A program made the translations under genes and the position numbers. Shown here piece by piece: positions 19,581-57,815 of a stretch of DNA of 64,000 nucleotides. The notes below the pieces were generated by a model. It did no database searches and was not told the origin of the DNA. It worked only from the letters and a program-made list of their open reading frames with translations. The stretch's first letter is position 1. The number at the start of each line of letters is the position of its first letter. The stretch covers positions 108,810 to 172,809 of the IMG/VR virus record IMGVR_UViG_3300042868_008486. One strand, 5' to 3'. The stretch comes from a virus (Duplodnaviria > Heunggongvirae > Uroviricota > Caudoviricetes).

Positions 19581-19592
19581 TATTTATAAATA
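19581..19592. promoter_or_regulatory. palindromic TATTTATAAATA element in divergent intergenic region
   Basis: Exact 12-mer palindrome containing the T4-late-like TATAAATA on both strands. 11 nt from the minus ATG at 19570 and 75 nt from the plus ATG at 19668. Confidence 0.4.
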
Positions 19593-19667
19593 TCAAGTAA
19601 ATCAATTGGTGAATTCAAATAATTTCATATCTTTGATAATATACAACAACCCATTAAAATAACAGAT

Positions 19668-20225
19668 ATGAAAACTTTAGCGACAATATTAGTAATCTTA
19701 ATGACATTCAACGTTAACTCTCAAAGTGGTTACAAACTATACTCTAAAGTATGGTTATTTGATTACAACAATAAAACTGCGGTAGTTCAACCAATTAACG
19801 GTTCAGTTAGTTTTAGATATGACTACTTAGACTCAGTTAATACCAAAATAGACACTAACAAAATAAAATCATATTTGTTAAAATCATTTAATGAATTCAG
19901 AAATGATTATGGAAAATGTTCTGTCGTTGAGAACCATCAATTAACTATAGAGTCTAAGAATTACTCTAAAAAATTGGTAAAAAAATACTGTCACGATAAA
20001 ATAACTAAAGGTTCGGAATGTATTTCTATGTTACCACTTATTACTTTCACATTAATCAAAAAAACTGATGGTGATTTTAATAAATTAGTTGCGGAATCTA
20101 TCTTCGACGTATTTGTTACCTCTAAGAACCATATGGATGTTTTACTTGACAACGAATACAAAGAATTTGGGTTTGGGTTTACCATTGAAAACTCAAACAT
20201 TTACATTGTTGTTCGTGGGATATAA
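19668..20225 (+). CDS. secreted hypothetical protein
   Basis: Signal peptide MKTLATILVILMTFNVNSQ. Confidence 0.55.
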   Translation: MKTLATILVILMTFNVNSQSGYKLYSKVWLFDYNNKTAVVQPINGSVSFRYDYLDSVNTKIDTNKIKSYLLKSFNEFRNDYGKCSVVENHQLTIESKNYSKKLVKKYCHDKITKGSECISMLPLITFTLIKKTDGDFNKLVAESIFDVFVTSKNHMDVLLDNEYKEFGFGFTIENSNIYIVVRGI

Positions 20226-20253
20226 AAAAAGGGAGTGTTAAACTCCCTTTTTA
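20224..20253. terminator. bidirectional terminator
   Basis: GGGAGT-GTTAAA-CTCCC hairpin with an A-run on one side and a T-run on the other. Lies between convergent genes. Confidence 0.6.
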
Positions 20254-20254
20254 A

Positions 20255-21451
20255 TTAATCTTCGGTTCCCCAATGAATAGTGCCTTTCATATTGGTTGAC
20301 CAATCTTTAGGCCCTTCACCCCAAGTTTCACATTGCATTTGAGAATTAGGTTCACCAACTTTACATTTAGATTGAGTTTTTGGATTCCAAATATATGCTA
20401 ATTTAATACCCGGAATTCTATATGGAATCTTAGGAACTTTAAACGCTACACCGTAATCATAATCAAAATCATAAGTAGGATATGTTTTTGATGGGTCTGT
20501 CTTTAACTTAGAATTACCCGAAATATTTAAATCTAAAGCAATTTTTAAATATTTATCGGATTCATAATCCGACTTATCTTTTGATGCTCCAGGTTGACCA
20601 TAAATATCACCACTGTTACTTGACGCTCCCAAATATTTACCCGTAAGATTACCTTCCCAATTAGGTGTATAAATTAATTTTGGTGATATTGTAACACCAA
20701 TTGATTTTAATTCAGCAATAACAAATTCTTTAGCCGACTCGTTTCTTAATTTTGATAATTCGGCAAAAGTATGAACTTTACCATCAGGTGATGTACCATT
20801 AGGTAATGTTGAACAAGATGTTTTGATTGTTAATCCATTTAATAATCCCTTACTATTAGGCGTATTAATTAAAGCGTCTTTAACCTTTTTTAGGGTTGTT
20901 TCTCTAAATTGAGCAACAAACTCAGGGTCCAATTTCCAACTATTATCAATAAAGTATTTTTTACTTACTAAATCATCGTCAACAGGAAATTCAAAATTAA
21001 TTGGTTGAGTTGTCCCTGGCGTTTCAATTGGTTTTGTGTTTGAAGCCTTTTTAGTTCTCGCATACATAATAGTAATATTACCTTCAGTACTTGCCTTTAA
21101 TTCTGAATACACTTTCAATATCATTGCTCGATATTTTGGGTTCTTTTTTAACATTGTAACTCTAAAGTGAGTATCATTTCGTTCACCCAATTTTTTTGAC
21201 ACTTCAGCAACAAGTTGTTTGTTTTCATTATATTTTTCAACTTCTTCATCACTAATAATTTTATTAACTTCTTCAGTGTTTGTTGATGGCGGTAAATCAA
21301 ATGTGTAACCATCTTGTTTATCCCCAATAATAGCACTCAACCACGCAGGTGCGACGTTTGATGTTTTCTGTAACGTAGGTGTCCATTGTTCATTAATATT
21401 TCTCATCAACACCCTATACTGAGATTCTGTAATTATTATTTTGTGTTTCAT
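20255..21451 (-). CDS. hypothetical protein (398 aa)
   Basis: Long ORF. Confidence 0.55.
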   Translation of the reverse strand: MKHKIIITESQYRVLMRNINEQWTPTLQKTSNVAPAWLSAIIGDKQDGYTFDLPPSTNTEEVNKIISDEEVEKYNENKQLVAEVSKKLGERNDTHFRVTMLKKNPKYRAMILKVYSELKASTEGNITIMYARTKKASNTKPIETPGTTQPINFEFPVDDDLVSKKYFIDNSWKLDPEFVAQFRETTLKKVKDALINTPNSKGLLNGLTIKTSCSTLPNGTSPDGKVHTFAELSKLRNESAKEFVIAELKSIGVTISPKLIYTPNWEGNLTGKYLGASSNSGDIYGQPGASKDKSDYESDKYLKIALDLNISGNSKLKTDPSKTYPTYDFDYDYGVAFKVPKIPYRIPGIKLAYIWNPKTQSKCKVGEPNSQMQCETWGEGPKDWSTNMKGTIHWGTED

Positions 21452-21488
21452 ATCAAGTTTTTATAAATAAATATATAATCCTTTCCTT

Positions 21489-21857
21489 TTGTCAATAATT
21501 CTTATATATTTATTAACTATGAAGACAATTTTAGTTTTATTATTAGGTCTTACATTTAGTTCATTTACATTTACTACAAGAAATGTAATTCCGAGTGTTC
21601 ATACCGCTACTTGGTATGACACATCAGGTCACCCTAGAGTCCATAGGGAACACTCGACCGCAGCGTACAACAACTTACCTTTACACACTAAATTAGTTGT
21701 TACCAATTTATCAAATAACAAGACAGATACTGTTGAAGTTACTGATAGAATGGGAAACAAATCTTCAAACCGAATTGATTTAAGTAAAAAATCATTTGGG
21801 AAGTTGGCTAATCACAAAGTGGGTAAAATTCAAGTTGTAGTTGTACCATTGAAATAA
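21489..21857 (+). CDS. RlpA-like double-psi beta-barrel protein (probable true start about 21519, MKTILVLLLGL signal)
   Basis: ATWYDTSGHPRVHREHSTAAYNNLPLHTKLVVTNL...NRIDLSKKSFGKLA matches the RlpA/expansin DPBB pattern. Confidence 0.55.
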   Translation: MSIILIYLLTMKTILVLLLGLTFSSFTFTTRNVIPSVHTATWYDTSGHPRVHREHSTAAYNNLPLHTKLVVTNLSNNKTDTVEVTDRMGNKSSNRIDLSKKSFGKLANHKVGKIQVVVVPLK

Positions 21858-21858
21858 A

Positions 21859-23162: not shown

Positions 23163-23237
23163 AATAATTTTTTTATTAAAGGTAGTTATTTATTTTTTCT
23201 TAATCAACACTATTTATTATTTAAGAATTAAAACATT

Positions 23238-23720
23238 ATGGCTTCAGCATTTGAATCTCTACCGGATAAAGCGGTATTTAAAATATGTCAAAAACTAATC
23301 GGACAAGAAATTGATATTGATGACTATGAAGAGTTATTTGATGCGGTGTCCGAAGTCGCTTCTTTATTTAAAATACAAGCCGGATATGTAGATTATAGTT
23401 ACATCAAAACTTATTTAAAACTGAATTTTGAAAGTATTATTAATAATGACCAATCAAGTATTGAAAAACCATCTTTAAAAGTTTACAATGTTCCTTATTA
23501 TATTATTGAGACACTTGTTGAGAGACAGGAGTTAGTTCAAAATTTCTCAACATATGAAGATGATTCATCAAACATTTCAGATATCATCATTGAATTAGAA
23601 TCTGATGATAGATTTGATATTTGGAGTGGTAATGAAAATCCTTACCGTAGTAGAGATTACATTGATAGTGAGTTAAATAGTTGGGGTGTAAGAGCCGATG
23701 AGATTAGACAAGTCAAATAA
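23238..23720 (+). CDS. hypothetical protein
   Basis: 160-aa plus-strand ORF. Confidence 0.5.
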   Translation: MASAFESLPDKAVFKICQKLIGQEIDIDDYEELFDAVSEVASLFKIQAGYVDYSYIKTYLKLNFESIINNDQSSIEKPSLKVYNVPYYIIETLVERQELVQNFSTYEDDSSNISDIIIELESDDRFDIWSGNENPYRSRDYIDSELNSWGVRADEIRQVK

Positions 23721-23968: not shown

Positions 23969-23970
23969 AT

Positions 23971-24921
23971 TCATATATAATCACCAAATAACTCATTAAT
24001 ATGTTCTTTAACATTGTAAGGGTATTCAACAATATGAAATGACAAATACTTATACTCATCACTATTCCCCATTAATACCGTTAAAATTGAAAGGAAACTA
24101 CCATAATAATCAATTGGGTTAAATGGATACCCATCAATTGTTTCATTTAAATAATCTCTAATAATCTGTTCAAATTTAGGGATTCGAATTTTTAAATTCC
24201 AACCACCTTTACCGTCTTCAGTCCAAAGGTTATCCATATCAAAATATTCGGTTAAAGCATCAAAGACATATTTTTGTTGTTCACTTTCCCAAGCGTTGTT
24301 ATAGGATTGACTATAAATATTATAAAGTTCTTGTTCCAAGTTATCGTCCATTGAATATATCTCATCAAAATAACTTTGGTCATTAATTGCATCAATCACA
24401 TTATCGTCACCTAATATAGTCCCGTCATCGAATTCAAATCCACGATGATTTTCCAAAAGATATTGTTTTAATCGTTCTTGGTTTGCAATATTTAAGTTAT
24501 CTACAACATCAACAAAAGCATCAAAACTATCTATGGTAAACATTTCAAAATATTCATTAGATAAGATAGTGTCAGCAATCCTCTCACAGGAATAATCAGC
24601 AGTAAATAATTCTTTTAAATCAGATAATTCACCTTTATAATAATAGTTACCATTTTCCACAAGAATGTCATTGAAACTCTCATTAACAATATGTTTGATA
24701 ACATCACCTGTGGTATCATTATCCAACATTGCTAATAACACCTGACCTTGATAATCTTCGTTAAAATTTGAACTATGAGGATTTAACGTCATTAAAAGAC
24801 CTTCTTTATTAATAACCTTAATTAAATTATCGAAGTTATGAAATAACTTAATTTCATCAGTCATATCATCACCATCATTTAATCTTTCAATGTAATCTAT
24901 TAAACGTTCTCTTTTTGTCAT
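23971..24921 (-). CDS. hypothetical protein (316 aa)
   Basis: Long ORF. Confidence 0.55.
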   Translation of the reverse strand: MTKRERLIDYIERLNDGDDMTDEIKLFHNFDNLIKVINKEGLLMTLNPHSSNFNEDYQGQVLLAMLDNDTTGDVIKHIVNESFNDILVENGNYYYKGELSDLKELFTADYSCERIADTILSNEYFEMFTIDSFDAFVDVVDNLNIANQERLKQYLLENHRGFEFDDGTILGDDNVIDAINDQSYFDEIYSMDDNLEQELYNIYSQSYNNAWESEQQKYVFDALTEYFDMDNLWTEDGKGGWNLKIRIPKFEQIIRDYLNETIDGYPFNPIDYYGSFLSILTVLMGNSDEYKYLSFHIVEYPYNVKEHINELFGDYI

Positions 24922-25080
24922 ACTAATAAATATTCACAACTAACTAAAAACTAGTAGTACTGTGGTCACCGAAATCGTTGTCGTAATCTTCTATAATATC
25001 TTCCATTTGTTTGGGGGGTTAAAAACATAAATATCATACCTCACTATTTATATTAAAATAAACAATAAAAAATTTTAATT

Positions 25081-25689
25081 ATGTCTTACACAAGAGAACA
25101 GATTGAGTCAGCACTTAAATCAAAAGGGTATAAATGGTTTAATGATGACGCAAATAAATCTTACGATGTCAACATCGTTGGTGTTAGAAACAATTCACCA
25201 TCAGTTGCTAAAAAGGTGACTAATGTATTTGATGACCATATCACAATTTCATTTAAAGATGAGAAAGGTGTTTGGCAATTCTATTGTTGGAACGCAACAA
25301 CAGACCCAGGTAAAAAAGGTGTTATGGAATTTCATAACAACAAAGGAGTTGCTAGATTAGTTCCTAATCAATATCGTACAACTTGGGCGGTTGATAAACA
25401 TCAGGGAAAATATGACGCTCTTTGTCAAAGATTGGCAAAAGTTAAAGTTTATCGTGATGCAAATAAAAACTTACTTTTTGAAGAAACTGTTACTGATGAA
25501 GGTATGTTTGGTATTAACATTCACAAAGCAGGAACTGATTCTACTTGGGTTGAAAATTGGTCTGAGGGATGTCAAGTATTTAAAAGAGTTAAAGACTTTG
25601 ATGTCTTTATGTCTATCTGTAAAAAAGCTTCTAAAATTCACGGTAACAAATTCAGTTACACATTATTAGAATCAACAGATATTAAATAA
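25081..25689 (+). CDS. YkuD-like (L,D-transpeptidase fold) putative peptidoglycan-active protein
   Basis: GINIHKAGTDSTWVENWSEGCQVF resembles the His...Ser-x-Gly-Cys catalytic motif of L,D-transpeptidases. Confidence 0.4.
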   Translation: MSYTREQIESALKSKGYKWFNDDANKSYDVNIVGVRNNSPSVAKKVTNVFDDHITISFKDEKGVWQFYCWNATTDPGKKGVMEFHNNKGVARLVPNQYRTTWAVDKHQGKYDALCQRLAKVKVYRDANKNLLFEETVTDEGMFGINIHKAGTDSTWVENWSEGCQVFKRVKDFDVFMSICKKASKIHGNKFSYTLLESTDIK

Positions 25690-26278: not shown

Positions 26279-26953
26279 TTATTGGAATATTGTTATGACG
26301 TATGGTGCTTGGAAGTCGGTGTCTATATAATTAGGAACATTACCTTCACTAAAAAAAGAGTCAAACTGAGGGTAATTAATTTCAGTTTCATCATAAATAT
26401 GATGATTTTGCCACCACTCATAACCACTAAGAGCATCTTCCAAAGGCATTTCACCAACTAATGAACCATCTTCAGCTCGATATTGATATGCCTTAATTGG
26501 GTCAACTTTATTATATATAGCAACAAAGTCTTCGTCCAAATGATATTCAACATCTTTATGGTTAACCAATATTATATCATACATTTTCTCATTAGTTTCC
26601 TCGTCCTCGTAAATATTGGTTTTTAATTTCTTAACATTCGAAAGTACCGATTTAACATAATCATTAACATCATTACTCGTATAAATGTCTTTAGCACCCT
26701 CAATTTTCACATTAAATCTTGAGTGTTGACCCATACCCGCAAGTCGATTGAAGAAATCAACTTGTTCACCTAATTGTGATTCAAGTCCAGGGTTAGTATA
26801 TGACAAATCATCAGGATTCTTCATTCTAAATTTTAGAATATCAGGGCCCATACTAGCCTCAAAAACCCCTAAAGGATAACATAAAATCCCATTAATGTTT
26901 GCAACACCTTTAAAGTATTTAGTCAACATCTTTACATAAATCTCGTCATTCAT
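26279..26953 (-). CDS. hypothetical protein
   Basis: 224-aa ORF. Confidence 0.5.
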   Translation of the reverse strand: MNDEIYVKMLTKYFKGVANINGILCYPLGVFEASMGPDILKFRMKNPDDLSYTNPGLESQLGEQVDFFNRLAGMGQHSRFNVKIEGAKDIYTSNDVNDYVKSVLSNVKKLKTNIYEDEETNEKMYDIILVNHKDVEYHLDEDFVAIYNKVDPIKAYQYRAEDGSLVGEMPLEDALSGYEWWQNHHIYDETEINYPQFDSFFSEGNVPNYIDTDFQAPYVITIFQ

Positions 26954-26955
26954 AG

Positions 26956-26967
26956 TATTTATAAATA
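26956..26967. promoter_or_regulatory. palindromic TATTTATAAATA element
   Basis: Exact 12-mer between divergent starts at 26953 (minus) and 26987 (plus). Confidence 0.4.
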
Positions 26968-26986
26968 TACTACTTAATTAAAAATT

Positions 26987-27490
26987 ATGGACAAAGAAAT
27001 ATTAAAAAAAGGTTTAGAGAAATATACCAAACACATATTAAAAATTATGGTTGATTACGATATCCGTATAGCAATCAGAAATGGTATGATAAAAAAACGA
27101 GAGTTTCTTATCACCTACATCTTTACGATTGACCATTCAAAATTTTGGAGAGGTAATAGAAACAACCCCAACCCTAACTTCAGTCAAGAATATAACGATG
27201 AAGTTAACAAAATATATATGGATGAATATACTGAAGAACTTGAGACCGCAGTTAAACTTTTTGGTGTTTCAGAACCTGATGTTAGAATAGAATATAAAAG
27301 TATTAACAAAGAAATCTACGACCCACTTATTAAAAGTTTAAACAACGATTATAATGGTGAATTTAGACCGGAATTTTTATATGCAAGCCCCGCATTAGGT
27401 TTAGAGTTTACCGAACACACAGACACAAGAGTTGTTCAAGAACAATTAGAAGATGAGGGGTTTGATATTGATGACATCGCCTTTTATTAA
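26987..27490 (+). CDS. hypothetical protein
   Basis: 167-aa ORF. Confidence 0.5.
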   Translation: MDKEILKKGLEKYTKHILKIMVDYDIRIAIRNGMIKKREFLITYIFTIDHSKFWRGNRNNPNPNFSQEYNDEVNKIYMDEYTEELETAVKLFGVSEPDVRIEYKSINKEIYDPLIKSLNNDYNGEFRPEFLYASPALGLEFTEHTDTRVVQEQLEDEGFDIDDIAFY

Positions 27491-28546: not shown

Positions 28547-29017
28547 TTATTTTAAAAATCTTAGTTTATATAATGTGGAATTAATTAATTCCTGAATTGT
28601 GTCTATCTGATTTTGTAGGTAACTTTCTTTAACCGACTTTCTTAGTGTGTCGATATCACCATCCAATTTTTTCAAATAGTTAATTACTTGTTCACCACTT
28701 TTATAGTTCTCAAATCCATCACATTTATAATTTGATATGATTCCGTGTTTACCTTGGTAAGATTCAATTAACCCGTCAAATAAACCCAAAACACCATCAT
28801 AATAATCATTTAACGCAATATGTTCTGCGTATGATTTAGTTTGTAAATGAAAGATGTGAGTCTGATTTCTTGAGTGTAATAATTTTGAAACTAATTGTGA
28901 GAAATTACCATTCTCACCACTTTCAGTTTTTTCTTCACTTTTTTCATCAGTCTTATCCTCTTCTTGTTCCATTAACTTACGAGTTAACATATCTTTTTTA
29001 CTAAAACTTTTTTCCAT
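28547..29017 (-). CDS. hypothetical protein
   Basis: 156-aa ORF. Confidence 0.5.
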   Translation of the reverse strand: MEKSFSKKDMLTRKLMEQEEDKTDEKSEEKTESGENGNFSQLVSKLLHSRNQTHIFHLQTKSYAEHIALNDYYDGVLGLFDGLIESYQGKHGIISNYKCDGFENYKSGEQVINYLKKLDGDIDTLRKSVKESYLQNQIDTIQELINSTLYKLRFLK

Positions 29018-29019: not shown

Positions 29020-29250
29020 TTATACGTTTTTACTATAAATACCTTCATTTATAAAATAAGACCTAACTAATTTACCCAACTCCATATCGTTTTGGGTTTC
29101 TTTAATCATTCCCTTGAGCTTCTTACGCTCCCCAATTAATTCCGATAAGATATTTTTAAACTCATCATTCTTAATTGTTCCGAATACGTTATTCTCAAAT
29201 AACTCTTCTAATTGAATCTTTAATTTAGTTTCACTTATCATTTCTAACAA
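29020..29250 (-). CDS. hypothetical protein
   Basis: 76-aa ORF. Confidence 0.4.
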   Translation of the reverse strand: MLEMISETKLKIQLEELFENNVFGTIKNDEFKNILSELIGERKKLKGMIKETQNDMELGKLVRSYFINEGIYSKNV

Positions 29251-30241: not shown

Positions 30242-30553
30242 TTATTGACCAATTACAATTTCATTAAAATCAATACTCTTTGTTCCGTCAAGACCACCAT
30301 CAACTTCTTTGTACATAAAATTGTTAACCACAGAAGTTATACTTTGTTCAGCCTGAGCAATTTTAGTTTCCATCCAATCTTCAAGTTGTTCACCTTCCTC
30401 CATTTTCTCCCACATTGTTTTAGCCAATGTAGCAATAGTATAAAGTTGTTGCTTAGCCATATAAGAACCTTCCTCCTGATTCTCATTAATTGACTTTTTG
30501 ATTTTCTTAGTAAGTCTTTCTAATTGTTTTTCAGTTATAATGATATTACCCAT
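30242..30553 (-). CDS. hypothetical protein
   Basis: 103-aa ORF. Confidence 0.45.
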   Translation of the reverse strand: MGNIIITEKQLERLTKKIKKSINENQEEGSYMAKQQLYTIATLAKTMWEKMEEGEQLEDWMETKIAQAEQSITSVVNNFMYKEVDGGLDGTKSIDFNEIVIGQ

Positions 30554-30563: not shown

Positions 30564-30575
30564 ATTTATAAATAT
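30564..30575. promoter_or_regulatory. palindromic TATTTATAAATA element
   Basis: Exact 12-mer 11 nt upstream of the ATG at 30553. Sits immediately after the terminator at 30583-30610. Confidence 0.45.
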
Positions 30576-30582: not shown

Positions 30583-30610
30583 TAAAAAAAGGGAGACCGA
30601 AATCTCCCTT
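30583..30610 (-). terminator. rho-independent terminator
   Basis: GGGAGA-CCGAAA-TCTCCC with a T-run on the minus strand. Confidence 0.55.
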
Positions 30611-34303: not shown

Positions 34304-34325
34304 ATGAACAAATATAATAAAAAAA

Positions 34326-34358
34326 CCCCAATAAAGATTTACTCTATTGGGATTTTTT
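34326..34358. terminator. hairpin plus T-run, terminator or attenuator
   Basis: CCCAATA-11 nt-TATTGGG, then TTTTTTT on plus and an A-run before it. Upstream of SmpB on minus. Confidence 0.4.
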
Positions 34359-34444
34359 TCAACCATAGTAAGAAAGGGGTTAATGGTATTTTGTGTAAAA
34401 TATAAATATTACTAAATTTTAAAAAGTTTTAGATATTTATCATT

Positions 34445-37257: not shown

Positions 37258-37285
37258 ATTATTTTTTATTAATAAATATTATGAA
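37258..37285 (-). promoter_or_regulatory. conserved upstream element AATATTTATTAATAAAAA (sense orientation)
   Basis: 18-mer identical to the one at 51744-51762 and near-identical to the one at 57797-57815. Lies between the terminator hairpin and the ATG. Confidence 0.45.
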
Positions 37286-39163: not shown

Positions 39164-39169
39164 TATTAT

Positions 39170-40114: not shown

Positions 40115-40117
40115 AAT

Positions 40118-42508: not shown

Positions 42509-42573
42509 TTAAAAATAGTCTATAAACTTTTATTTAAATATAAATATAGGTTCAGACTATTTTATTTTGTAGA

Positions 42574-43811: not shown

Positions 43812-45293
43812 TCAATTAGTTCTCATAACAACATAGTAAGTACCGTCGACATTAATCTCATCATAACTACCATCATAACTATTCAAATCACCATAATCAC
43901 CATTACTTATTAATTCTTCTTTAAGTGATTTTTCATCAACATATCTAAATATGGTTTTACTATCATAACCCATATCTTGCAAAAACCCTAAAGGGTCTCG
44001 TCTAATTTCAGCTAATTTATCTTCAACCTCAGACTCAATCATATCTTCACTAACTTCAGGTTCAATCTCATCAATTTTTTCTTGAGTTTCGTCTTTCTTT
44101 TCTTCAGCTCTTTCAATTAAATTTTGAATCTCATCATAAGCCGGTGAATACTCGTCACTATCAATAGGAATCTCATCCTCTAATGATGATTGTTTTTCTT
44201 CCAACTCAGATATGTACACATCTAACTCATCAATATACGCTTGTAAAGTCGCGATTTCACGTTCTTGGTCATCGGTATAATCTAAGTTATTTAAATCAAA
44301 ATATGCTTGAGGTTCACTACTAATATCATCATAATAATAATCTTTAAAATCATCAGCAACATCATCACCATCAATATGACGTTCAAGTGTGTCCTTACTA
44401 AAATTTTCATACCCTACATCATCAATGTAATTATCCCAATAATCATCTAACGCTTTATCAGCTTCATCAGTTGTCATAACAGAATATTCGTTAGGATTAC
44501 GGAAACCACCTAAATCACGAACAATAAATGAGTTATATCCATAATCAACAATATCATAAACGTCATAATATTCGGATTCAATTTCTTCAATTCTAGATTC
44601 TACCTCATCAATTTCATCTTGTAATGAATCAACAGTTTCGTCATCATCAGTTTCATTGTATCGGTCTTGTAATAGTTCTAATCGTCGTTTTAACTCATCG
44701 TATTCTTCTTTGACCTCATCGGTCTTAATCATTACAGAACTATCGTTATTTGAAAGATATTCTAATAATGCCCATCGTTTTGCCGCCTCTTCACTACTAT
44801 TAAGGTCATCAAATGTCCCTTCTTCTCTATCGGCTTGCATTTCGGCAAATTTTGCGTTATATTCCTGACGTATTTTTTTATTTTCTAACTCAGAATCGTA
44901 TGCTGATATTGACCCAAATTCAACACCATCTACTGATGATACCCTTGAATATGATATGTCCAACTTACCCTCAACATATTTTAATTTACCCAAATCTTTA
45001 AGATTTTTACAACTCGCCAATTTTAAATCACCCGAAACACCGGCAAGATTACCTAAAGTTGTGATAGGTTTTGATGACAAATCCAAATCACCATCAATCC
45101 ACACAAGTTTCCCTTGGAATCGTTTTAATTTAGTTACTATATCCATTCGGTTAACACCGGCAGTTAACATCGTTAAAAATTGGCCAGGTTCCATATGGTA
45201 ATATTCACCTTCAACTTGTTCAACAATCGCACGAACAAACCCTTTCAAACCACTTTCAGTTAATCTAATTTTTTTCATATCAATAAATATCAA
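43812..45293 (-). CDS. hypothetical acidic coiled-coil protein (493 aa)
   Basis: N-terminal LRR-like block, D/E-rich C-terminal half. Confidence 0.55.
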   Translation of the reverse strand: MIFIDMKKIRLTESGLKGFVRAIVEQVEGEYYHMEPGQFLTMLTAGVNRMDIVTKLKRFQGKLVWIDGDLDLSSKPITTLGNLAGVSGDLKLASCKNLKDLGKLKYVEGKLDISYSRVSSVDGVEFGSISAYDSELENKKIRQEYNAKFAEMQADREEGTFDDLNSSEEAAKRWALLEYLSNNDSSVMIKTDEVKEEYDELKRRLELLQDRYNETDDDETVDSLQDEIDEVESRIEEIESEYYDVYDIVDYGYNSFIVRDLGGFRNPNEYSVMTTDEADKALDDYWDNYIDDVGYENFSKDTLERHIDGDDVADDFKDYYYDDISSEPQAYFDLNNLDYTDDQEREIATLQAYIDELDVYISELEEKQSSLEDEIPIDSDEYSPAYDEIQNLIERAEEKKDETQEKIDEIEPEVSEDMIESEVEDKLAEIRRDPLGFLQDMGYDSKTIFRYVDEKSLKEELISNGDYGDLNSYDGSYDEINVDGTYYVVMRTN

Positions 45294-45381
45294 TTATTAC
45301 AATAAATAGTCCATTAAACTTTACAATTAAACCTTTTCGTTGATATTTATCTATGTATAAACTTTAATAAAAAACATTAAT

Positions 45382-45537
45382 ATGGGATGTGGATGTAAAA
45401 ACAAAGGAAACCAAGCACAACAACCTACAACTCAACAAGGTCAACAACCTTCACAACCTGAAGGTCAAAAAACCAATAATCAATCTATTCAAGAGTCGAT
45501 TAAAAAAGTAGTTGAGAAGTATTACACAAAAAGGTAA
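45382..45537 (+). CDS. small Q/P-rich protein (MGCGCKNKGNQAQQPTTQQGQQPSQPEGQK...)
   Basis: 51-codon plus-strand ORF followed by the terminator at 45559-45586. Not in the track. Confidence 0.35.
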   Translation: MGCGCKNKGNQAQQPTTQQGQQPSQPEGQKTNNQSIQESIKKVVEKYYTKR

Positions 45538-49163: not shown

Positions 49164-49952
49164 TTAAAACATTTCCTCAGCCAAGTCCCAAAGTTTGGTG
49201 TTGATTCGGTTAGTATTTAAGATGTCGTTCAACGTTCTAAGTTTAGTTTTACGACCACTGTTAGATTTGTATTGAATACCACCTCTAACCCACTTCTCCT
49301 GAACCACGTTGAATACTTGCCAAAGTGAGTCTCCTTTATCCTCGTCCCTCAATGGATTCAAGATTTCTTCGTAGTCTAAAGTTGCCGGTACTGAACCTGT
49401 TTTCCAACGAACCTCCGCAGATTTTCTAACGAAGTCAATCTTCTCGTCAGTCGTCAACTCTCTCCCCATCATTCGGTTAACTGAACCTTCGATGATTGGT
49501 AGTCTTTTTGAGAAGTCCTCAGTCAATCGTTTAACATCTTCTAACTCGAAACCTGTATGTCTTACTCTGAAAGCCTCAGATAACGCCGTAGGTACTGTTA
49601 ATCCGTTAGCACATACTAATCGGTGTAAACCCGCCTTAATGTTTAACGTCGCCATACCATTGTGTGAGTTAGACACTATCGCTTCAATCAATGTGTCACC
49701 AACGTTTGGTAATTCACCATTACGGAACTTGATTTCGTGTAATCCGTGGACACCTTTCCCTGTTTGTTTTACACTCGCAATCTCCCACCCCTCTCTTTGG
49801 AAGTTCTCTACGATATCCACTGTTGGAACGAATGTGTATCTGTTAGATACTTTTGGTGATGGACTTGTAGCGAATACAGATGGTGCTACTTCTTTAACTT
49901 GGTCTAAGGTCATAATCGCGTTTCTCATATCTTTATCGTTTTGGTTTAACAA
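49164..49952 (-). CDS. DUF932-like phage/plasmid protein
   Basis: 262 aa. FVPTVDIVENF...EI pattern resembles DUF932. Weak. Confidence 0.35.
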   Translation of the reverse strand: MLNQNDKDMRNAIMTLDQVKEVAPSVFATSPSPKVSNRYTFVPTVDIVENFQREGWEIASVKQTGKGVHGLHEIKFRNGELPNVGDTLIEAIVSNSHNGMATLNIKAGLHRLVCANGLTVPTALSEAFRVRHTGFELEDVKRLTEDFSKRLPIIEGSVNRMMGRELTTDEKIDFVRKSAEVRWKTGSVPATLDYEEILNPLRDEDKGDSLWQVFNVVQEKWVRGGIQYKSNSGRKTKLRTLNDILNTNRINTKLWDLAEEMF

Positions 49953-50337: not shown

Positions 50338-51729
50338 TTACATTACAGTGAAGAACATAGGAGCATCTTCTTCAAGTTTCTCTCTAAGTCTTTCAGGTAT
50401 CTTAACACTTGGATTTGAATCTACCAATACTAAGAAATTCAACATATCAGCATCTGCAACACTTTCAGGAATTGCTTCCAATTGTTTGTTTTCAGTTAAT
50501 GATAAGAAATACAAGTTTGGCATTCTATCGAATACATCAGGTAATGTTTTCACTAAGTTAGTGAACATTATTGATTGTAAATCGGTAAACTTACCTAAAC
50601 TTTCAGGAACATCAAGTGCGATGTTTTCTTTTGAAGTATTGTTTATATGTAATTTATCAATATCAGATGGTAAACTTTCGAATAACTCATTAAACCCGTA
50701 TAACGCTACGAATTTACCCGCTGAACTGTTAGGGTAATTAATATCAACTGTTTTTGAGTTATTTGACACTAAACCTTTTGCGAATTCTTGTTTAAACTCA
50801 TCTTTAAATTCAGACAATGGTCCATTTAACAATTCAACCAAATTTACTCTATGGTCCATTCTGTCCATAAATTGGTCAGATGGAAAGTGGAATTGGAACC
50901 TTTCTTGAGGTAATCCTGTTCTTTTACCAACCAAACCTTTATCATCATTTGCCAAGATAACATATAATGGACCTTGTTTAGCGTAAGTCATAAAGTAGTT
51001 TGAACCCGGAGGTGAAGTACACCAATGTGACTCACCATTTTGGTAATCATAATAACCACCATACCAAGATGCCGCCTCACGTTGTAAGTCACCTGTTCCT
51101 TCAATTTTAATTAAAGTATAGTCACTACCAACTTTCATAACCTCAGCACCTGGATGTGAATAACCTTCACGTTCTTTTCGAATGTCTTTCTTTAAACTTT
51201 CTTTATTTTTCTTAGCAACAACATCTTCAGGAATTGATGTGATAACTCTAGTTAACGACATTGGTGTTAACTTATTAATGTCACGACTTTCCTGTGGGAT
51301 ATGTGCTTTATATGATTCAAACTTTTTAAGTAAGTCATTTAGTTTAAATAAATCCTCAAGGTATCGTCTACGGAATTCTTTAACAATCGCCTTATATTCA
51401 GGTGATTTTGGGTCAAGACCTTCAATATCACCAATTTCCGCTAGTTCTTCGTTGGAAGGTTTAACCAAACTTTTAAGTAACCATTGAGTAAATTTACCAA
51501 CCTTTACTTTCTCCATATCCTCAACAGACGCACCTTCAACATCAAAGTTCTCAGGCATTTGGACTGTAGGGTCAGCAAAAATCACTTGTTTTAATATCTC
51601 GAAAGGTAGGGCTCCTTTGGCTTTTTTAGTAGGGTCGTTACTTGGTACTGGTTTTACCAATTTATCGTATAATACTTGAAATCTTGATTGTTCAACAATT
51701 AAGTTTGAAAGTAATGAAGTTATTCTCAT
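50338..51729 (-). CDS. hypothetical protein with C-terminal leucine-rich repeats
   Basis: Probable ATG start at 51729 (MRITSLL). The track ORF is extended to 51765 by a TTG start through the conserved upstream motif. Confidence 0.55.
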   Translation of the reverse strand: MRITSLLSNLIVEQSRFQVLYDKLVKPVPSNDPTKKAKGALPFEILKQVIFADPTVQMPENFDVEGASVEDMEKVKVGKFTQWLLKSLVKPSNEELAEIGDIEGLDPKSPEYKAIVKEFRRRYLEDLFKLNDLLKKFESYKAHIPQESRDINKLTPMSLTRVITSIPEDVVAKKNKESLKKDIRKEREGYSHPGAEVMKVGSDYTLIKIEGTGDLQREAASWYGGYYDYQNGESHWCTSPPGSNYFMTYAKQGPLYVILANDDKGLVGKRTGLPQERFQFHFPSDQFMDRMDHRVNLVELLNGPLSEFKDEFKQEFAKGLVSNNSKTVDINYPNSSAGKFVALYGFNELFESLPSDIDKLHINNTSKENIALDVPESLGKFTDLQSIMFTNLVKTLPDVFDRMPNLYFLSLTENKQLEAIPESVADADMLNFLVLVDSNPSVKIPERLREKLEEDAPMFFTVM

Positions 51730-51762
51730 AATTTTATTTTTATTAATAAATATTTCAGTTTT
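51730..51762 (-). promoter_or_regulatory. conserved upstream element AATATTTATTAATAAAAA
   Basis: Shares the 18-mer tttttattaataaatatt with 37258-37277. Confidence 0.45.
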
Positions 51763-51792
51763 CAAAAATAGTCATAATTTTTAAAATAACTA

Positions 51793-52638
51793 TTAAATAC
51801 TATAATTCATCACTAACAATTCTTCCCCCATACTTTGAGTTTTACCTTTCTTAGCCGCGGCTGCTTTAGCGAATAACTTACTTTCCCAAACGTATTCATC
51901 CTTTGGGAACCACTCAGATAATAATGGGAAATCATAATAAGATAATGAAAATTTACCCTTCATATCTTTTAAAACATTCGCTAACCTTTCGTGGTCTTCT
52001 CTATCAAAATCGTGATTAGAGTAATAGTTCTCAGTCTTCCAATATGGTGGGTCAGTATAGAAGTACGTTTTAGGTCCATCATATTTAGTAATAACATCAG
52101 CAAAATCCATATTCTCAACCTCAGTAATTTTTAAGAAGTGCTCCAACCAATCAGGTTTAGATAACTTATCACGGAATGTTAAGTATTTTGATTTGTACTT
52201 ACCTTTAAGGTCGATATACGAACTCTTTTCAGGTTTTGACCCTGAAAATACTTGAGTTATAACATATACATATTTTGCCGCAGTCTGATAATCACCAGGG
52301 GTTACGCTGAAATTCTCCGCAAATATTTCAGCCTGAAACCTGTTAAATAATTCTTTTAGATGAGGTGGAGTAACTTCAACCCCCACTTGCTGGCATTCAA
52401 ATGAATTAATCGCATTCAACAATTCTGTTGGGTTCTGTAAACATTTAAACAGATTATAATTCAATGGATTAAAATCATTGTAAACAACCTTGGTTAAGTT
52501 GGGGTATTTTTTTAGGTCCATATTGTAGAATACCCAAAACATACCACTAAATGGTTCGACATATGTTTCAATGTCATTTGGGATAAATGGAACAATCCAT
52601 TTCCCTATCTTACTTTTCCCTCCGATGTAACTTAGCAT
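51793..52638 (-). CDS. dam: Dam-like N6-adenine DNA methyltransferase (alpha class, D12)
   Basis: SYIGGKSK...YVEPFSGMFWVF (motif I) followed by YTDPPYW (motif IV). Confidence 0.7.
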   Translation of the reverse strand: MLSYIGGKSKIGKWIVPFIPNDIETYVEPFSGMFWVFYNMDLKKYPNLTKVVYNDFNPLNYNLFKCLQNPTELLNAINSFECQQVGVEVTPPHLKELFNRFQAEIFAENFSVTPGDYQTAAKYVYVITQVFSGSKPEKSSYIDLKGKYKSKYLTFRDKLSKPDWLEHFLKITEVENMDFADVITKYDGPKTYFYTDPPYWKTENYYSNHDFDREDHERLANVLKDMKGKFSLSYYDFPLLSEWFPKDEYVWESKLFAKAAAAKKGKTQSMGEELLVMNYSI

Positions 52639-52732
52639 ACTTTTTTTATGTAAGAATAGTTATTATAATTCCCCAAATCAACCTTGAAATTAGTTTATTT
52701 GTATTTATATTTATAAAAAAAAATTAATAATT

Positions 52733-52948
52733 ATGGAAGAATTTGAAGGTAATGTTGTTGAGGCGGATGTGTTAAACAGAATCACTGAAGTTGGTGATAA
52801 AGATGGGAAGTCTTGTAAATCTTGTGGTAATAAAGGTATCGGTAAAAATAACGTATCAATTTTAGTTGTTGGGTTTTCGGTAGTATTTACGTCTTGTTAT
52901 GGTATTGTTAAAATAGTTCAAGACATTTATCATTTGTTTGCTCGTTAA
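52733..52948 (+). CDS. small protein with C-terminal TM helix
   Basis: 71 aa, CKSCGNKG then VSILVVGFSVVFTSCYGIV. Confidence 0.35.
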   Translation: MEEFEGNVVEADVLNRITEVGDKDGKSCKSCGNKGIGKNNVSILVVGFSVVFTSCYGIVKIVQDIYHLFAR

Positions 52949-53860
52949 TTAACGAGCAAACTTTACAAATAACTTAACAAATAAATCACCCCCATTGAAC
53001 CCCTTGGATTTAACTCTTAGGGGTTTTGACGTATCAAACGTTGGTGGCATTTTTATTGACAATGCACCTTGTGGGTGTGGAACCTCAAATGATTCACTTT
53101 TTAACCCATTCAAATCAAAATATTTATTGTAAATTAAATCATTATTAAACTTCTCAAAATCGTTTTCAGGATTTAATCTAACTCGAACAACTAAATTACC
53201 ATAAATACCTTTATAGTAATCACCCTTACCTTGTAATTTCAAAAACTGACCATCATCAATTCCGTGGGGTAATTTAATACTAACTGTTTCGATTTTCTCC
53301 TGAGTTGTCGAACCTTGACAAGTATGACAGACTCTAGTGTAGGAAAATCCTTGACCATTACAGGCATTACAATGTGATTGTACCATTTGTACAAACATCC
53401 CCGTTCCTATTCTTTGAGTTACAAATCCATTACCGTGACAATGTTGACAAGTGTGTCTATCACCACCTTGCCCACCACAATCATTACACATATGTTTCCT
53501 TTGGAATGTTATGTGTTTATCAGAACCATTAAACGACTCTAACGCACCTACTAAAATATCAATTACTTTATCAGGAGCTCCTTGTCGTTGTTGTCTTTGC
53601 TGATTGAACATTTGTTCAAATGGATTGAATCCACCACCACCCATACCACTGAATGGGTTATTTCGTTGACTATCATATTGAGCTCGTTTATTGTCGTCCC
53701 CCAATACGTCATACGCTTCAGATATTCTTTTAAATAAGTTTTCATCCCCACCTTTATCAGGGTGATGTTCTTTGGCTAATTTTCTATATTTTTTTTTAAT
53801 CGTGTCTTGATTGTCCTTTTCATCAACACCTAGTATTTCGTAATAATTCTCACGACTCAT
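52949..53860 (-). CDS. dnaJ: DnaJ-like co-chaperone
   Basis: J-domain with HPD (KEHHPDKGGD). Four CxxCxGxG repeats. C-terminal domain present. Confidence 0.8.
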   Translation of the reverse strand: MSRENYYEILGVDEKDNQDTIKKKYRKLAKEHHPDKGGDENLFKRISEAYDVLGDDNKRAQYDSQRNNPFSGMGGGGFNPFEQMFNQQRQQRQGAPDKVIDILVGALESFNGSDKHITFQRKHMCNDCGGQGGDRHTCQHCHGNGFVTQRIGTGMFVQMVQSHCNACNGQGFSYTRVCHTCQGSTTQEKIETVSIKLPHGIDDGQFLKLQGKGDYYKGIYGNLVVRVRLNPENDFEKFNNDLIYNKYFDLNGLKSESFEVPHPQGALSIKMPPTFDTSKPLRVKSKGFNGGDLFVKLFVKFAR

Positions 53861-55476: not shown

Positions 55477-55653
55477 TTATTTCTCAGTTTTTCTTTCAGC
55501 TAAAATTTCTTTTCTTAACTCGTCCAATTGTTTTTTCAATTTTTGAGCGGTTTGTCTAGCTCTTGTTCCCGCGCTTTTATTACCACCAAAAAACTTAGTT
55601 GTATCCACTGATAATTCTTCAGCCAACGCTTTGATTTGTTCTAATGTTTCCAT
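55477..55653 (-). CDS. histone H1-like nucleoid protein (58 aa)
   Basis: METLEQIKALAEELSVDTTKFFGGNKSAGTRARQTAQKLKKQLDELRKEI resembles Bacteroidetes histone H1/Hc1-like proteins. Not in the track (below 60 aa). TATTTATA lies about 25 nt upstream. Confidence 0.45.
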   Translation of the reverse strand: METLEQIKALAEELSVDTTKFFGGNKSAGTRARQTAQKLKKQLDELRKEILAERKTEK

Positions 55654-55734
55654 TTTAAATGTTGTTTTGTTTTATTTTTATTTATACTAAAAGTTAATTT
55701 TATTACTCCTAATGTAAATAGTGGGGGGAAATTT

Positions 55735-56202
55735 TTATTTATCAATATTTTTATCCAAGACTTTATACAAAGAGGATATCATATCCAAATCGGATTTAGT
55801 AAATGGTTTTTTAGTATCGAATAAATCGGTGAAAAAATCATTAATAGCGTTTCGAATTTCCTCATTTTTTTGATTATAAAATGTATCATCGAAAAATGAT
55901 TTAAAATAGTCTAAATGTTCACCTTCGGGATAAAAGTTAATACTTTCTTTTTTGAAGTTCTCTAATGTTCGGTTCCAACACCAAATAAAGTGATTCCCAT
56001 TATCTTCATCTGATAATGTGATTTTGGTCTCTATGGTATTATCGGTCTCACCAAGATATGTTTTTACTATTAACATATTTAATGAACGTGTAAAGTCGTA
56101 ATATAATACCAATTTTTCGGGTATAATATTATTACTTCGAAACCAAACGTCAACGTCTTCAGGTGTCAATGGCTTTGTTATATAGTTAAAAAAATTCTCC
56201 AT
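55735..56202 (-). CDS. hypothetical protein
   Basis: 155-aa ORF. Confidence 0.5.
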   Translation of the reverse strand: MENFFNYITKPLTPEDVDVWFRSNNIIPEKLVLYYDFTRSLNMLIVKTYLGETDNTIETKITLSDEDNGNHFIWCWNRTLENFKKESINFYPEGEHLDYFKSFFDDTFYNQKNEEIRNAINDFFTDLFDTKKPFTKSDLDMISSLYKVLDKNIDK

Positions 56203-56250
56203 AGATAAATGTCTATGGAGAAATTATAATTCTTATTATGTTAAAGTAAA

Positions 56251-57789
56251 TTATTGAGTTTTTCTACTATAACCCATCAAATGTTGGATTTTAGTGAATT
56301 CTTCATTTAATACTTTAGTTGTCTTTTCAGTAGACTCAAGTTTAATGTTAAGACCATTTCCTGATTCATTATCCGGTCTGTCTGTTATAGGTTGTGTTGC
56401 TTTGTTATATGACTTATTACGAAGTTTAGCGAACTTGTTATCTTTACGTTTTTTATTAAGTTTTTTACCTAAGTCAGTTTCTTCAGCATTTGCCCATTTT
56501 GGGTTATTTCCTGTTTTAGATGAACCTTCGATATTACCTTCCATCCAATCTTCATTTGGTTGAATTTCATCATAATCTAAGTTCTCCATACCAGGTCTCA
56601 TATAATCATCCAAAAACTCATCACCGTCTTTAGACATTGTATAACCTTTTTTAGTCATTTTAGATAATTGTCCGTTATTTTTAGGAAAATGGTTAGGGTT
56701 TTCAGTGTATTCACCTTTAGAACCATCTTTTAAATAATCTTTCATTTTTTTAGTTACAGATTTGATGTAATCATCATTTTCTTTACCCGAACCTTTATGA
56801 GCTTTCTCATATTCAGATAACCCTCTAACTTTACCTCCTGTTGTTTTTAAATCTTCTTTAACGATTGATTCAATTAAATCAATTAATTCAGACTCAGATA
56901 ACTTCAAAGATTCTTTTTTACCCCCTTTATTTTTAGCTTCTTTCGCAGCTTTTTTCATAGGTTCTTTTTTATCGCCATTCTTATTTAAATCTAAGAAATC
57001 AGGTTTACTTTCTTTTGTTTCAGTTTTTTTACCCCTTAACAATTTGAAGTCCTCAGCATCAATCTTATTATTTTTATTCTTGTCTAATTTCTTTTGACCA
57101 CCTTTTAATGACTCATTCAATGATTTACAATTATATCTTTTAATTAAGTCCAAATCAAGTTCATCAGCTTCACCACCTTTACTTTCAATAGTATCTTTAA
57201 CGGCTTTACAACCACCAACATTTTCTTCAGAGTCAAAACCTTCTTCTTCATCCATCATACCATATGAACCACCACACTCGTTACATTCATTCTCATAAAG
57301 ACCACTACCACATTCACATAATCCTGAACCACTTTCATCTAATTCATTTTCAAAATCATCATCTTCGTATTCGAAATCAGAATCATTATCAGAATATTCA
57401 TCAACCCCATCTTCAAAATCAGAATCATCATTACCATAATGTTTCAATAAATCTTCAATATCGTCAGCCGACATCTTTGAAAAGTTTTTACGTCCGAATC
57501 TTGGGTGTCCGTCGTCCATACCACCAAGTTCATTAATTTCCTCATCAAATTCAGAATCGACATCAGAATCATCATCATTATAATTTTTTAATAAGTCAGC
57601 TATCTCATCAGAAGACATTTCTGAAAAGTTTTTACTTCCGAATTTTGGATGACCATCGTCCATACCACCAAGTTCATTAACTTCATTATGTTTTAATCTT
57701 GATACTAAGTTATCCGCTCTTTCCTCCAACGTTTCAGATAAAATTTTACTAACTAAACTATCTATGTTTTTTTGATTATTTTTTCTCAT
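56251..57789 (-). CDS. acidic protein with internal 48-aa duplication and Cys-rich segment
   Basis: NELGGMDDGHP[KR]FG.KNFS.MS.D.I.DLLK.Y..DDSD repeated twice. CECGSGLYENECNECGG. Confidence 0.55.
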   Translation of the reverse strand: MRKNNQKNIDSLVSKILSETLEERADNLVSRLKHNEVNELGGMDDGHPKFGSKNFSEMSSDEIADLLKNYNDDDSDVDSEFDEEINELGGMDDGHPRFGRKNFSKMSADDIEDLLKHYGNDDSDFEDGVDEYSDNDSDFEYEDDDFENELDESGSGLCECGSGLYENECNECGGSYGMMDEEEGFDSEENVGGCKAVKDTIESKGGEADELDLDLIKRYNCKSLNESLKGGQKKLDKNKNNKIDAEDFKLLRGKKTETKESKPDFLDLNKNGDKKEPMKKAAKEAKNKGGKKESLKLSESELIDLIESIVKEDLKTTGGKVRGLSEYEKAHKGSGKENDDYIKSVTKKMKDYLKDGSKGEYTENPNHFPKNNGQLSKMTKKGYTMSKDGDEFLDDYMRPGMENLDYDEIQPNEDWMEGNIEGSSKTGNNPKWANAEETDLGKKLNKKRKDNKFAKLRNKSYNKATQPITDRPDNESGNGLNIKLESTEKTTKVLNEEFTKIQHLMGYSRKTQ

Positions 57790-57796
57790 TGTTTTG

Positions 57797-57815
57797 TTTT
57801 TATAATAAATATTAT
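57797..57815 (-). promoter_or_regulatory. conserved upstream element AATATTTATTATAAAAA
   Basis: 8 nt upstream of the ATG at 57789. Variant of the 37258 and 51744 motif. Confidence 0.4.

Follow-up and report, generated by a model that had tools for sequence, protein, structure and literature searches.

Housekeeping promoters of the Bacteroidota pair a -33 TTTG with a -7 TAnnTTTG, the latter since revised to TAHHTTTG, and are read by sigmaA(Bfr). Among phages, the late promoters of T4 carry TATAAATA at -10 and no -35 element, and are read by gp55, a sigma factor without region 4, together with gp33 and the gp45 clamp. The Bacillus phage SPO1 runs a sigma cascade, in which gp28 is followed by gp33/34. 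Here, we describe an octamer, ATATTTAT or more generally VTATTTAT when read on the sense strand of the downstream gene, which recurs in a stretch of 64,000 nt from a virus of the class Caudoviricetes (IMG/VR record IMGVR_UViG_3300042868_008486, positions 108,810 to 172,809; 'the window' hereafter). We refer to this octamer as the P box, and to the Bacteroidota-type TAHHTTTG, which in these phages reads TATCTTTG or TATATTTG, as the H box. We put at roughly three in four the probability that the P box forms the -10-type core of a class of promoters peculiar to the clade of Bacteroidota phages to which the window belongs.

In Flavobacterium johnsoniae, the -7 box spans positions -12 to -5 and the transcript begins 4-5 nt past the box; Bacteroidota mRNAs lack a Shine-Dalgarno sequence and depend on A-rich sequence upstream (PMC6847099). 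Jumbo phages without a polymerase of their own often carry a minimal and an RpoD-like sigma factor plus gp33 (PMC7824862). The moraphages, freshwater jumbo phages of up to 307 kb with predicted Flavobacteriia hosts that were described in 2025, count a sigma factor, a primase, an SbcC-like exonuclease, glutaredoxin, DnaJ and T4-like tail genes among their core genes, and the corresponding paper contains no promoter analysis (PMC12619734). Transcription signals of Bacteroidota phages are a little studied area, and our literature search found no paper joining the present motif with phage promoters.

A conserved octamer upstream of start codons

When all 8-mers were counted in the 45 nt upstream of the 111 ATG-started open reading frames (ORFs) of the window, ATATTTAT came out on top, preceding 16 genes (binomial p 7e-16). 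The window holds 32 copies on its two strands. Nineteen of them fall in the non-coding 11% of the sequence, and 17 of these 19 aim at an ATG on the same strand 4-35 nt away. Because the intergenic DNA, when shuffled on its own with dinucleotides preserved, yields 2.5 +/- 1.5 copies (at most 7 in any of 300 shuffles), the observed count cannot be put down to AT-richness. As relatives we used about 100 metagenomic phage fragments from protein-guided IMG/VR searches (contigs of up to 322 kb; about 20 kb of sequence compared per relative). In the window together with 10 non-redundant relatives, 64 of 121 copies lie within the 45 nt before an ATG, that is in 3% of all positions (17-fold enrichment, p 3e-63). 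The octamer ranks first or second among upstream 8-mers in most relatives taken singly, and again first in 1.46 Mb pooled around the sigma gene of 80 further sigma-carrying loci. In window and relatives alike, the motif is concentrated upstream of ATGs, where the first-pass annotation of the window had placed it.

Single-base changes at any of box positions 2-8 remove the upstream enrichment in the window and relatives, including those in the invariant TA at positions 2-3, and other 8-mers composed of A/T only are not enriched. At position 1, A is the most frequent base, G or C is also accepted, and T is avoided. Since enrichment survives base changes at position 1 only, we define the unit as VTATTTAT.

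The first-pass annotation had instead taken as its unit a palindromic 12-mer, TATTTATAAATA, and had noted the T4 late-promoter sequence within the core of the motif. The 12-mer does occur in three exact copies where 0.10 are expected, at 19581, 26956 and 30563 (not 30564), and all three are intergenic, at distances of 2-19 nt from an ATG rather than the 10-20 nt given. Palindromic forms, however, account for just 3 of the 19 intergenic copies in the window and 13 of the 132 leadered copies in the clade (those outside the leaderless class introduced below), and the palindrome is therefore not supported as the functional unit. The bases needed to complete TATAAATA are variable (A in 52-62%). Intergenic copies of TATAAATA in the window are mostly the antisense strand of ATATTTATA, and the four sense copies all lie within VTATTTATAAATA. 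Palindrome and T4-like octamer are thus by-products of the P box, and we reject a T4-late reading of the motif because TATAAATA is not the conserved unit. What P boxes do share with T4 late promoters is a single AT-only element of 8 bp near -10, the lack of a -35 element, phage specificity and some virion genes among those served; the palindromic minority merely happens to include the T4-type sequence. No homologues of gp55, gp33 or gp45 were identified in the clade sequence covered, which consists of partial genomes, and the only sigma factor seen in the clade is full-length and RpoD-like, unlike gp55.

Two longer sequence identities had also been reported. A 17-mer, ATATTTATWAATAAAAA, gives 8 matches at up to two mismatches in the window against 1.2 expected and, on the minus strand, precedes the ATGs at 19570, 21451, 30553, 37257 and 51729 as proposed; at the sixth start named, 57789, core and A-rich tail alone are present. 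The 18-mer said to be shared exactly does exist, at 37263-37280 and 51737-51754 instead of 37258 and 51744.

Spacing, proposed start-site register and placement of the boxes

The distance from box to ATG is bimodal, with 33 of 122 non-redundant sites at 4-5 nt and a second peak at 14-16 nt. As the F. johnsoniae transcript begins 4-5 nt past the -7 box, the shorter spacing points to leaderless mRNAs. In leadered sites, the box is followed by W-A-W-W and then by a run of A, and an A peak (77-83% A, with G/C near absent) sits 5-7 nt past the box, coinciding with the position of the ATG's A in the leaderless class. This spacing suggests the register T(-12) A(-11) T T T A T(-6), with transcription probably starting at the A 4-5 nt past the box; the conserved T-A then comes to lie at -12/-11, at the upstream end, as in sigma70-type -10 elements. 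We disfavour the alternative that places A(-11) at box position 1, given that this position accepts G/C and that there are no sites at the predicted spacing. The A-rich tail AATAAAAA looks like an ordinary short, A-rich, Shine-Dalgarno-free Bacteroidota leader (PMC6847099). A translation-initiation element, the second function that the first-pass annotation had considered, is not supported, as the box of the 4-5 nt class cannot be part of the mRNA.

Compared with the Bacteroidota -7 box, the P box is likewise an AT-rich octamer beginning with TA, has T-rich DNA upstream, serves genes without a Shine-Dalgarno sequence and occupies the same place relative to leaderless ATGs to within 0-1 nt. The two differ in the downstream half, TTTAT-W against HHTTTG: in place of T(-8) T(-7) T(-6) G(-5), the P box has TAT-W and so lacks the hallmark G(-5), the G variant ATATTTGT being weakly represented (9/59 copies), and T is disfavoured just 5' of the box. 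The -33 TTTG expected about 19-21 bp upstream is absent as well. Only T-rich DNA, without a TTG signal, lies 5' of P boxes, whereas the same analysis detects TTG 5' of H boxes.

No conserved motif was found upstream of the P box, which may abut a terminator hairpin. The terminator-like hairpins noticed in the first pass directly upstream of the motif are present on the minus strand at 30584-30608 and 37290-37314, giving the order terminator, box, ATG (30584/30575 and 37290/37279), and this order is kept in orthologues of 25-48% protein identity. In orthologues of 23971-24921 (25-28% identity), hairpin, T-run, ATATTTAT, 4 nt and ATG follow each other; with hairpin and T-run immediately before the box, there is no room for a sequence-specific -35 element. 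Furthermore, five short divergent intergenic regions (33-159 nt) bear a box on each strand. In the smallest (33 nt, 26954-26986), the palindrome consists of two overlapping divergent boxes. The sites in the window are as follows.

19586-19593, minus strand: P box ATATTTAT, 15 nt before the ATG of 17906-19570, inside the palindromic 12-mer 19581-19592; kept in orthologues L082-L084
21467-21474, minus strand: P box, 15 nt before the ATG of 20255-21451, one of two in a 67-nt divergent region; orthologues keep ATATTTAT or GTATTTAT
21506-21513, plus strand: P box of the leaderless class, 5 nt before the ATG of 21519-21857 (DPBB_1 lipoprotein-like)
24926-24933, minus strand: P box of the leaderless class, 4 nt before the ATG of 23971-24921
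26955-26968, both strands: two overlapping divergent P boxes in the 33-nt intergenic region, equal to the palindromic 12-mer at 26956; arrangement kept in L001
26961-26968, minus strand: ATATTTAT of this pair, 7 nt before the ATG of 26279-26953
26955-26962, plus strand: GTATTTAT of this pair, 24 nt before the ATG of 26987-27490
30568-30575, minus strand: P box, 14 nt before the ATG of 30242-30553, directly after a terminator; kept in L001, L082 and L084
30584-30608, minus strand: terminator-like hairpin with T-run, immediately upstream of P box 30568-30575
34402-34409, minus strand: P box, 35 nt before the ATG of 33869-34366 (SmpB), in a divergent region; kept in L001
34433-34440, plus strand: P box of the leaderless class, 4 nt before the ATG of 34445-34786 (DUF192); box at 4 nt also in orthologues L088 and L089
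37272-37279, minus strand: P box, 14 nt before the ATG of 36193-37257, directly after a terminator
37290-37314, minus strand: terminator-like hairpin with T-run, ending the tail-fibre / Gly-rich / methylase operon and preceding P box 37272-37279
42540-42547, minus strand: P box, 31 nt before the ATG of 41675-42508 (tail-fibre-like); the operon continues down to 37303
45283-45290, minus strand: P box of the leaderless class, 4 nt before the ATG of 43812-45278, with a second box, CTATTTAT, at 45302-45309; P box in 5/5 orthologues
45343-45350, plus strand: P box, 31 nt before the ATG of 45382-45537, divergent partner of 45283-45290
51746-51753, minus strand: P box, 16 nt before the ATG of 50338-51729 (leucine-rich-repeat C-terminus), preceded by a host-type box TATTTTTG at 51763-51770 (tandem promoters)
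52701-52714, plus strand: overlapping P boxes GTATTTAT and ATATTTAT, at 24 and 18 nt, respectively, from the ATG of 52733-52948
57805-57812, minus strand: P box, 15 nt before the ATG of 56251-57789; box at 14-16 nt in 31/33 distinct orthologue upstream regions
9016-9034, plus strand: overlapping P boxes at 9016-9023 and 9022-9029, plus a host-type box TATATTTG at 9027-9034, upstream of 9039-9527
29035-29042, minus strand: P box variant GTATTTAT, 17 nt before the ATG of 28547-29017 (DUF5856, Dps-like), within the end of the upstream ORF; P box in 5/5 orthologues
23210-23217, plus strand: P box variant CTATTTAT, 20 nt before the ATG of 23238-23720
25044-25051, plus strand: P box variant CTATTTAT, 29 nt before the ATG of 25081-25689 (matches endolysin-like PHROG families)

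The longest ORFs at 43812-45293 and 50338-51765 (minus strand) begin at TTG codons that overlap a P box or lie upstream of it. Comparison with orthologues favours the ATG starts at 45278 and 51729. For 50338-51765, whose crossing of the motif had already been suspected to be a miscall, orthologues begin at the ATG equivalent to 51729. Two further intergenic copies of ATATTTAT, at 25027-25034 and 12007-12014 (minus strand), have no called gene within 70 nt downstream and may drive small unannotated ORFs or RNAs, or be inactive.

Clade specificity and a second, host-type class

The window has a G+C content of 31-39%, its genes lie mainly on the minus strand, and its start codons are not preceded by Shine-Dalgarno sequences, a known Bacteroidota signature (PMC6847099). 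It belongs to a clade of uncultured, widespread and very large phages of Bacteroidota. Searching the GenBank phage collection with 10 kb of DNA and a 568-aa (amino acid) protein as queries returned no DNA or protein match, and for the sigma factor the same collection yielded matches below 40% identity only, so that no close homologue of it is present in a cultured phage. By published description, the clade resembles the moraphages in its Bacteroidota host signature, in relatives of up to 322 kb, and in its sigma factor, primase, SbcC-type exonuclease, glutaredoxin and DnaJ. RNA polymerase genes were not seen in the clade sequence covered, i.e. in partial genomes.

These phages also use true Bacteroidota promoters, for instance in front of the sigma operon. 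The H box is their second upstream-enriched motif and carries the expected TTG about 20 bp upstream; its spacing to the ATG shows a sharp peak at exactly 4 nt and a broad class at 15-26 nt. Which of the two classes a gene has is constant within gene families, as judged from distinct orthologue upstream regions. In the 56251-57789 family, a P box stands at 14-16 nt in 31/33 regions and an H box in none, although the proteins are only about 45% identical and the flanks have diverged. Conversely, the sigma operon has an H box (TAHHTTTG) in 37/40 distinct relatives and a P box in none. P boxes precede 5/5 examined orthologues in both the 28547-29017 and the 43812-45278 families, H boxes 6/6 in the 49164-49928 family (DUF932), and the 50338-51729 family retains the tandem order H, then P. 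Overall, the box is retained upstream of orthologues with only 25-50% protein identity. H or H-like boxes precede the sigma operon, the DUF932 gene, transfer RNA (tRNA) genes and long operons of small genes, and P boxes many single genes and short operons. Host-type boxes TATATTTG are found at 10949-10956 and 13842-13849, just upstream of tRNA genes.

Outside the clade, the P box loses its association with gene starts. In 0.9 Mb around cellular rpoD genes of Bacteroidota, it is enriched 1.3-fold upstream, against 4.3-fold for the H box, and in 1.1 Mb of unrelated viral contigs 0.9-1.2-fold; in phages that are unrelated but likewise low in G+C, the motif is unenriched. Judged by where it lies, how specific it is and how well it is conserved, the P box very probably belongs to a phage-specific promoter that defines transcription units. 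Of the two functions contemplated in the first pass, orientation, terminators, divergent regions, conservation and specificity argue for this one, a promoter element marking the starts of transcription units, over translation initiation.

A diverged sigmaA homologue in the same phages

The first-pass annotation had drawn attention to a gene of the sigma-70 family in the window, and the ORF concerned indeed contains Pfam sigma-70 regions 1.2, 2 and 4. The gene and its promoter are:

61993-62796, minus strand: phage sigma factor, homologue of Bacteroidota sigmaA
63410-63417, minus strand: -7 box of the host type, TATCTTTG, preceded by TTTG at about 20 nt and followed at 15 nt by the ATG of 62798-63394, first gene of the sigma operon

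The nearest cellular relatives of this protein are primary sigma factors of Bacteroidota, at 41-45% identity. Metagenomes hold at least 8,000 significant homologues, the best 120 of which are 79-100% identical and lie on contigs reaching about 320 kb; the 80 nearest viral sigma loci of IMG/VR are 75-83% identical. All motif-bearing contigs that could be checked also carry the sigma gene: L002 and L182 are parts of one contig, as are L090 and L231, and L092 has a sigma fragment. The gene is the second of a two-gene operon whose first gene is 62798-63394 (minus strand). In the relatives examined, the gene preceding sigma on the same strand has an acidic product, 170-200 aa in length, whose sequence identity within the clade is only about 38%. 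The C-terminus of the window's version matches DUF6576 weakly; gene position and host-type promoter are conserved, and the protein is a candidate for a sigma partner or a modifier of host transcription. An H-like box at 62828-62835, before the sigma ATG itself, was dismissed as a chance match in coding sequence, being present in 4/24 relatives.

Comparison of 120 phage sigmas with 63 cellular ones showed that the helices of region 2.3-2.4 (FISYAVWW.RQSILQ) and region 4.2 (ERVRQIKEKA, with one R to K change) are essentially shared. Phage-specific changes cluster in regions 1.2 and 3.0, and are accompanied by a 6-aa insertion past region 1.2 and a 24-aa deletion in region 3.1. In well-studied sigma70 holoenzymes, recognition of -12 falls to region 2.4, and region 1.2 touches the bases that follow the -10 element. 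The pattern would be in keeping with a factor whose preference for TA at -12/-11 is retained but whose downstream half-site has changed. As in phage sigma cascades, the sigma gene stands behind a host-type promoter and a second, phage-specific promoter class is spread across the genome. Unlike SPO1 promoters, however, the P class has no -35-type element, and unlike cascade sigmas such as those of SPO1, the factor considered here keeps host-like recognition helices; its link to the box is proposed from sequence.

In the relative L178 (1-10000), which represents DNA just past the window's high-coordinate end, the genes 5' of the sigma operon form a block on one strand that lacks P boxes; it includes a gene with a faint match to a primase (DnaG), an SbcD-like phosphoesterase and an SbcC-like ATPase. 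In T4, gene 55, encoding the late sigma factor, adjoins genes 46 and 47, which are SbcCD homologues.

Genes behind the boxes and neighbouring features

Searches of PHROGs, Pfam and PDB sequences returned almost no match for most box-driven genes, several of which are ORFans encoding low-complexity proteins. Only the tail-fibre-type gene 41675-42508, which heads a P-driven operon, could be assigned to a module, by way of homologues of its 277-aa product that have collagen, phage cement, Peptidase_S74, PTR and BppL_N domains. Downstream of it, at 38204-41041 (minus strand), come three paralogous Gly-rich proteins of about 310 aa, two of which end in ...GGDGLVIITYW-like tails (a Gly_rich_2 domain was found in the one checked), and the operon closes with a DNA methylase and then a terminator. 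The P-driven 463-aa protein of 50338-51729 has a C-terminal leucine-rich-repeat domain. The P-driven 512-aa protein of 56251-57789 is highly charged, with internal repeats INELGGMDDGHP.FG, and a stretch of about 45 aa around residues 255-300 is common to hundreds of unrelated viral contigs.

The window also encodes cell-like functions: SmpB (33869-34366), with no transfer-messenger RNA found in the window, and full-length DnaJ, nicotinamide phosphoribosyltransferase and ribose-phosphate pyrophosphokinase (52949-53860, 4405-5910 and 6104-7003). Two DNA methyltransferases are of the N6_N4 and D12 classes (37303-38169 and 51793-52638). A tRNA cluster occupies 9544-10846 (minus strand) and 13754-13831, where ARAGORN calls four genes and Rfam five. 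The tRNA at 10774-10846 has a CTA anticodon, of the amber-suppressor type, and that at 10531-10643 contains an insertion. Because of the CTA tRNA, the ORFs of the window were checked for TAG/TGA recoding, and no read-through ORFs were found. Between 11935 and 13750, about 1.9 kb are devoid of ORFs and contain at least six copies of a tRNA T-arm-like repeat, GGTTCGAGTCC (minus strand), four of them with a partner repeat.

12030-12062, 12383-12415, 12670-12702, 12856-12888, 13637-13669 and 13674-13706, minus strand: T-arm-like repeats
12210-12229, 12481-12500, 12766-12785 and 12957-12976: partner repeats, tRNA-Leu D-arm-like, 5' of four T-arm copies

The paired units, of about 115-125 nt, have a 7-bp acceptor-like stem when folded; ARAGORN and Rfam both report no tRNA at these places, and the units may be tRNA-like genes with insertions of 35-45 nt.

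Discussion

In the scheme that we favour, the P box acts as the core of a phage-specific promoter. Host RNA polymerase with host sigmaA would transcribe the H units first, the phage sigma gene among them. The polymerase would then switch to the P box, with the phage sigma factor as the simplest agent of the change, and read the P units, including the tail-fibre operon. Transcription from P boxes would be independent of a -33/-35 element, the box often abutting the T-run of the preceding terminator. Genes with their ATG 4-5 nt past the box would give leaderless mRNAs, and those with the ATG at 14-16 nt would have a leader of about 10 nt, rich in A and free of Shine-Dalgarno sequences, to which the AATAAAAA part of the consensus would correspond. 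An early role of H promoters and a middle or late one of P promoters is compatible with the genes behind each class, and the host-type promoter before the sigma gene fits a cascade without proving it.

Which factor reads the P box is the less certain part of this scheme. We hold it at about even odds that the phage's own sigma does so. Slightly below that, and tentatively, we would suggest that this factor has been re-specified through regions 1.2 and 3.0 and the deletion in region 3.1 so that it reads the -33-independent TATTTAT-W, with the host-type -12/-11 contacts and region 4 helices kept. Several observations weigh against our account. Host-like regions 4.2 and 2.4 mean that the phage sigma could equally read H promoters, and the P class lacks the -33 element that a host-like region 4 would bind. 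Start sites and timing are, moreover, deduced from spacing only. Some variant boxes are weakly conserved, for example that at 58640 (10/30 orthologues) and that at 61970, inside a hairpin (4/29). Finally, the P-driven genes are a mixed set (SmpB, DUF192, Dps-like, a lytic-transglycosylase-like lipoprotein and many without a match) and do not form a clean late module; as most box-driven genes lack a functional match, the gene content gives no clean early/late assignment.

Possible, though we give it lower odds again than the re-specified sigma, is a division of labour in which recognition of P promoters falls to the host sigmaA holoenzyme, alone or helped by a phage cofactor, or to a minimal, gp55-type sigma that has escaped recognition and whose gene lies in another part of the genome of about 200-320 kb, and the RpoD-like factor replaces or supplements sigmaA at H promoters. 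The near identity of the phage sigma to Bacteroidota sigmaA in regions 2.3-2.4 and 4.2, the frequency of H promoters with a -33 TTG in these phages and the lack of a -35-type element in the P class, as in T4 late promoters, would all be in line with it. A minimal sigma beside an RpoD-like one is often found in jumbo phages without their own polymerase (PMC7824862), and in the moraphages, which may be related, a second transcription-related core gene accompanies T4-like genes for tail and baseplate (PMC12619734). On the other hand, no second sigma-like protein emerged from a hidden Markov model search of 2,799 clade proteins, a set drawn from partial genomes in which gp55-like factors are hard to detect in this way. 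Unaided host sigmaA is unlikely to prefer the P box, because the box is not used upstream of cellular Bacteroidota genes, and the fixed, clade-specific changes in sigma regions 1.2 and 3 would call for an explanation of their own.

The explanations that do without a promoter element fare worse. The palindromy of some copies and their location at gene starts could suggest an operator, i.e. a repressor or activator site of the phage overlapping promoters. However, only about 10% of copies are palindromic, the orientation is strict, and the spacing to the ATG is promoter-like and equal to that of a bona fide -7 box; the divergent regions of 33-78 nt and the post-terminator sites offer no other conserved promoter candidate that such an operator could overlap, so we regard this as improbable. 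A motif acting at the RNA level (a translation enhancer, a repressor site of the T4 RegA type or a processing site) would account for the proximity to ATGs, and Bacteroidota mRNAs without Shine-Dalgarno sequences do use A-rich upstream sequence (PMC6847099). It is, if anything, a shade less probable than the operator: about one quarter of the sites lie 4-5 nt from the ATG in places where a transcript must also begin, among them the divergent regions of 33-78 nt and post-terminator positions, with nothing conserved further upstream where a promoter would have to be, and the eight invariant bases tolerate no substitution, unlike a general AU-rich enhancer. That the box is a functionless by-product of AT-rich intergenic composition has a negligible chance in our view. 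The genome has a G+C content of 32% and its intergenic DNA is richer still in A/T, yet the shuffled intergenic sequences fall far short of the 19 copies observed, A/T-only 8-mers and single-base variants are unenriched, orthologous sites are conserved amid diverged flanks, and unrelated low-GC phages show no such signal.

The P class is the kind of feature to be expected of a large phage and does not introduce a new principle. For these phages, P and H boxes together allow the annotation of transcription units and the correction of start codons (as for 50338-51765 and 43812-45293), and they predict leaderless genes in genomes where most proteins lack a recognisable function. As an orthogonal promoter part, the P box could be of use in Flavobacteria as well. 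Two promoter classes alongside a diverged sigmaA homologue offer a natural, testable case for how specificity shifts in a Bacteroidota-type sigma factor. Should the reading with a re-specified sigma be true, a small set of sigma changes would separate phage from host promoters within the unusual transcription of the Bacteroidota, and leaderless transcripts, reportedly a minority in this phylum, would be numerous among the phage mRNAs.

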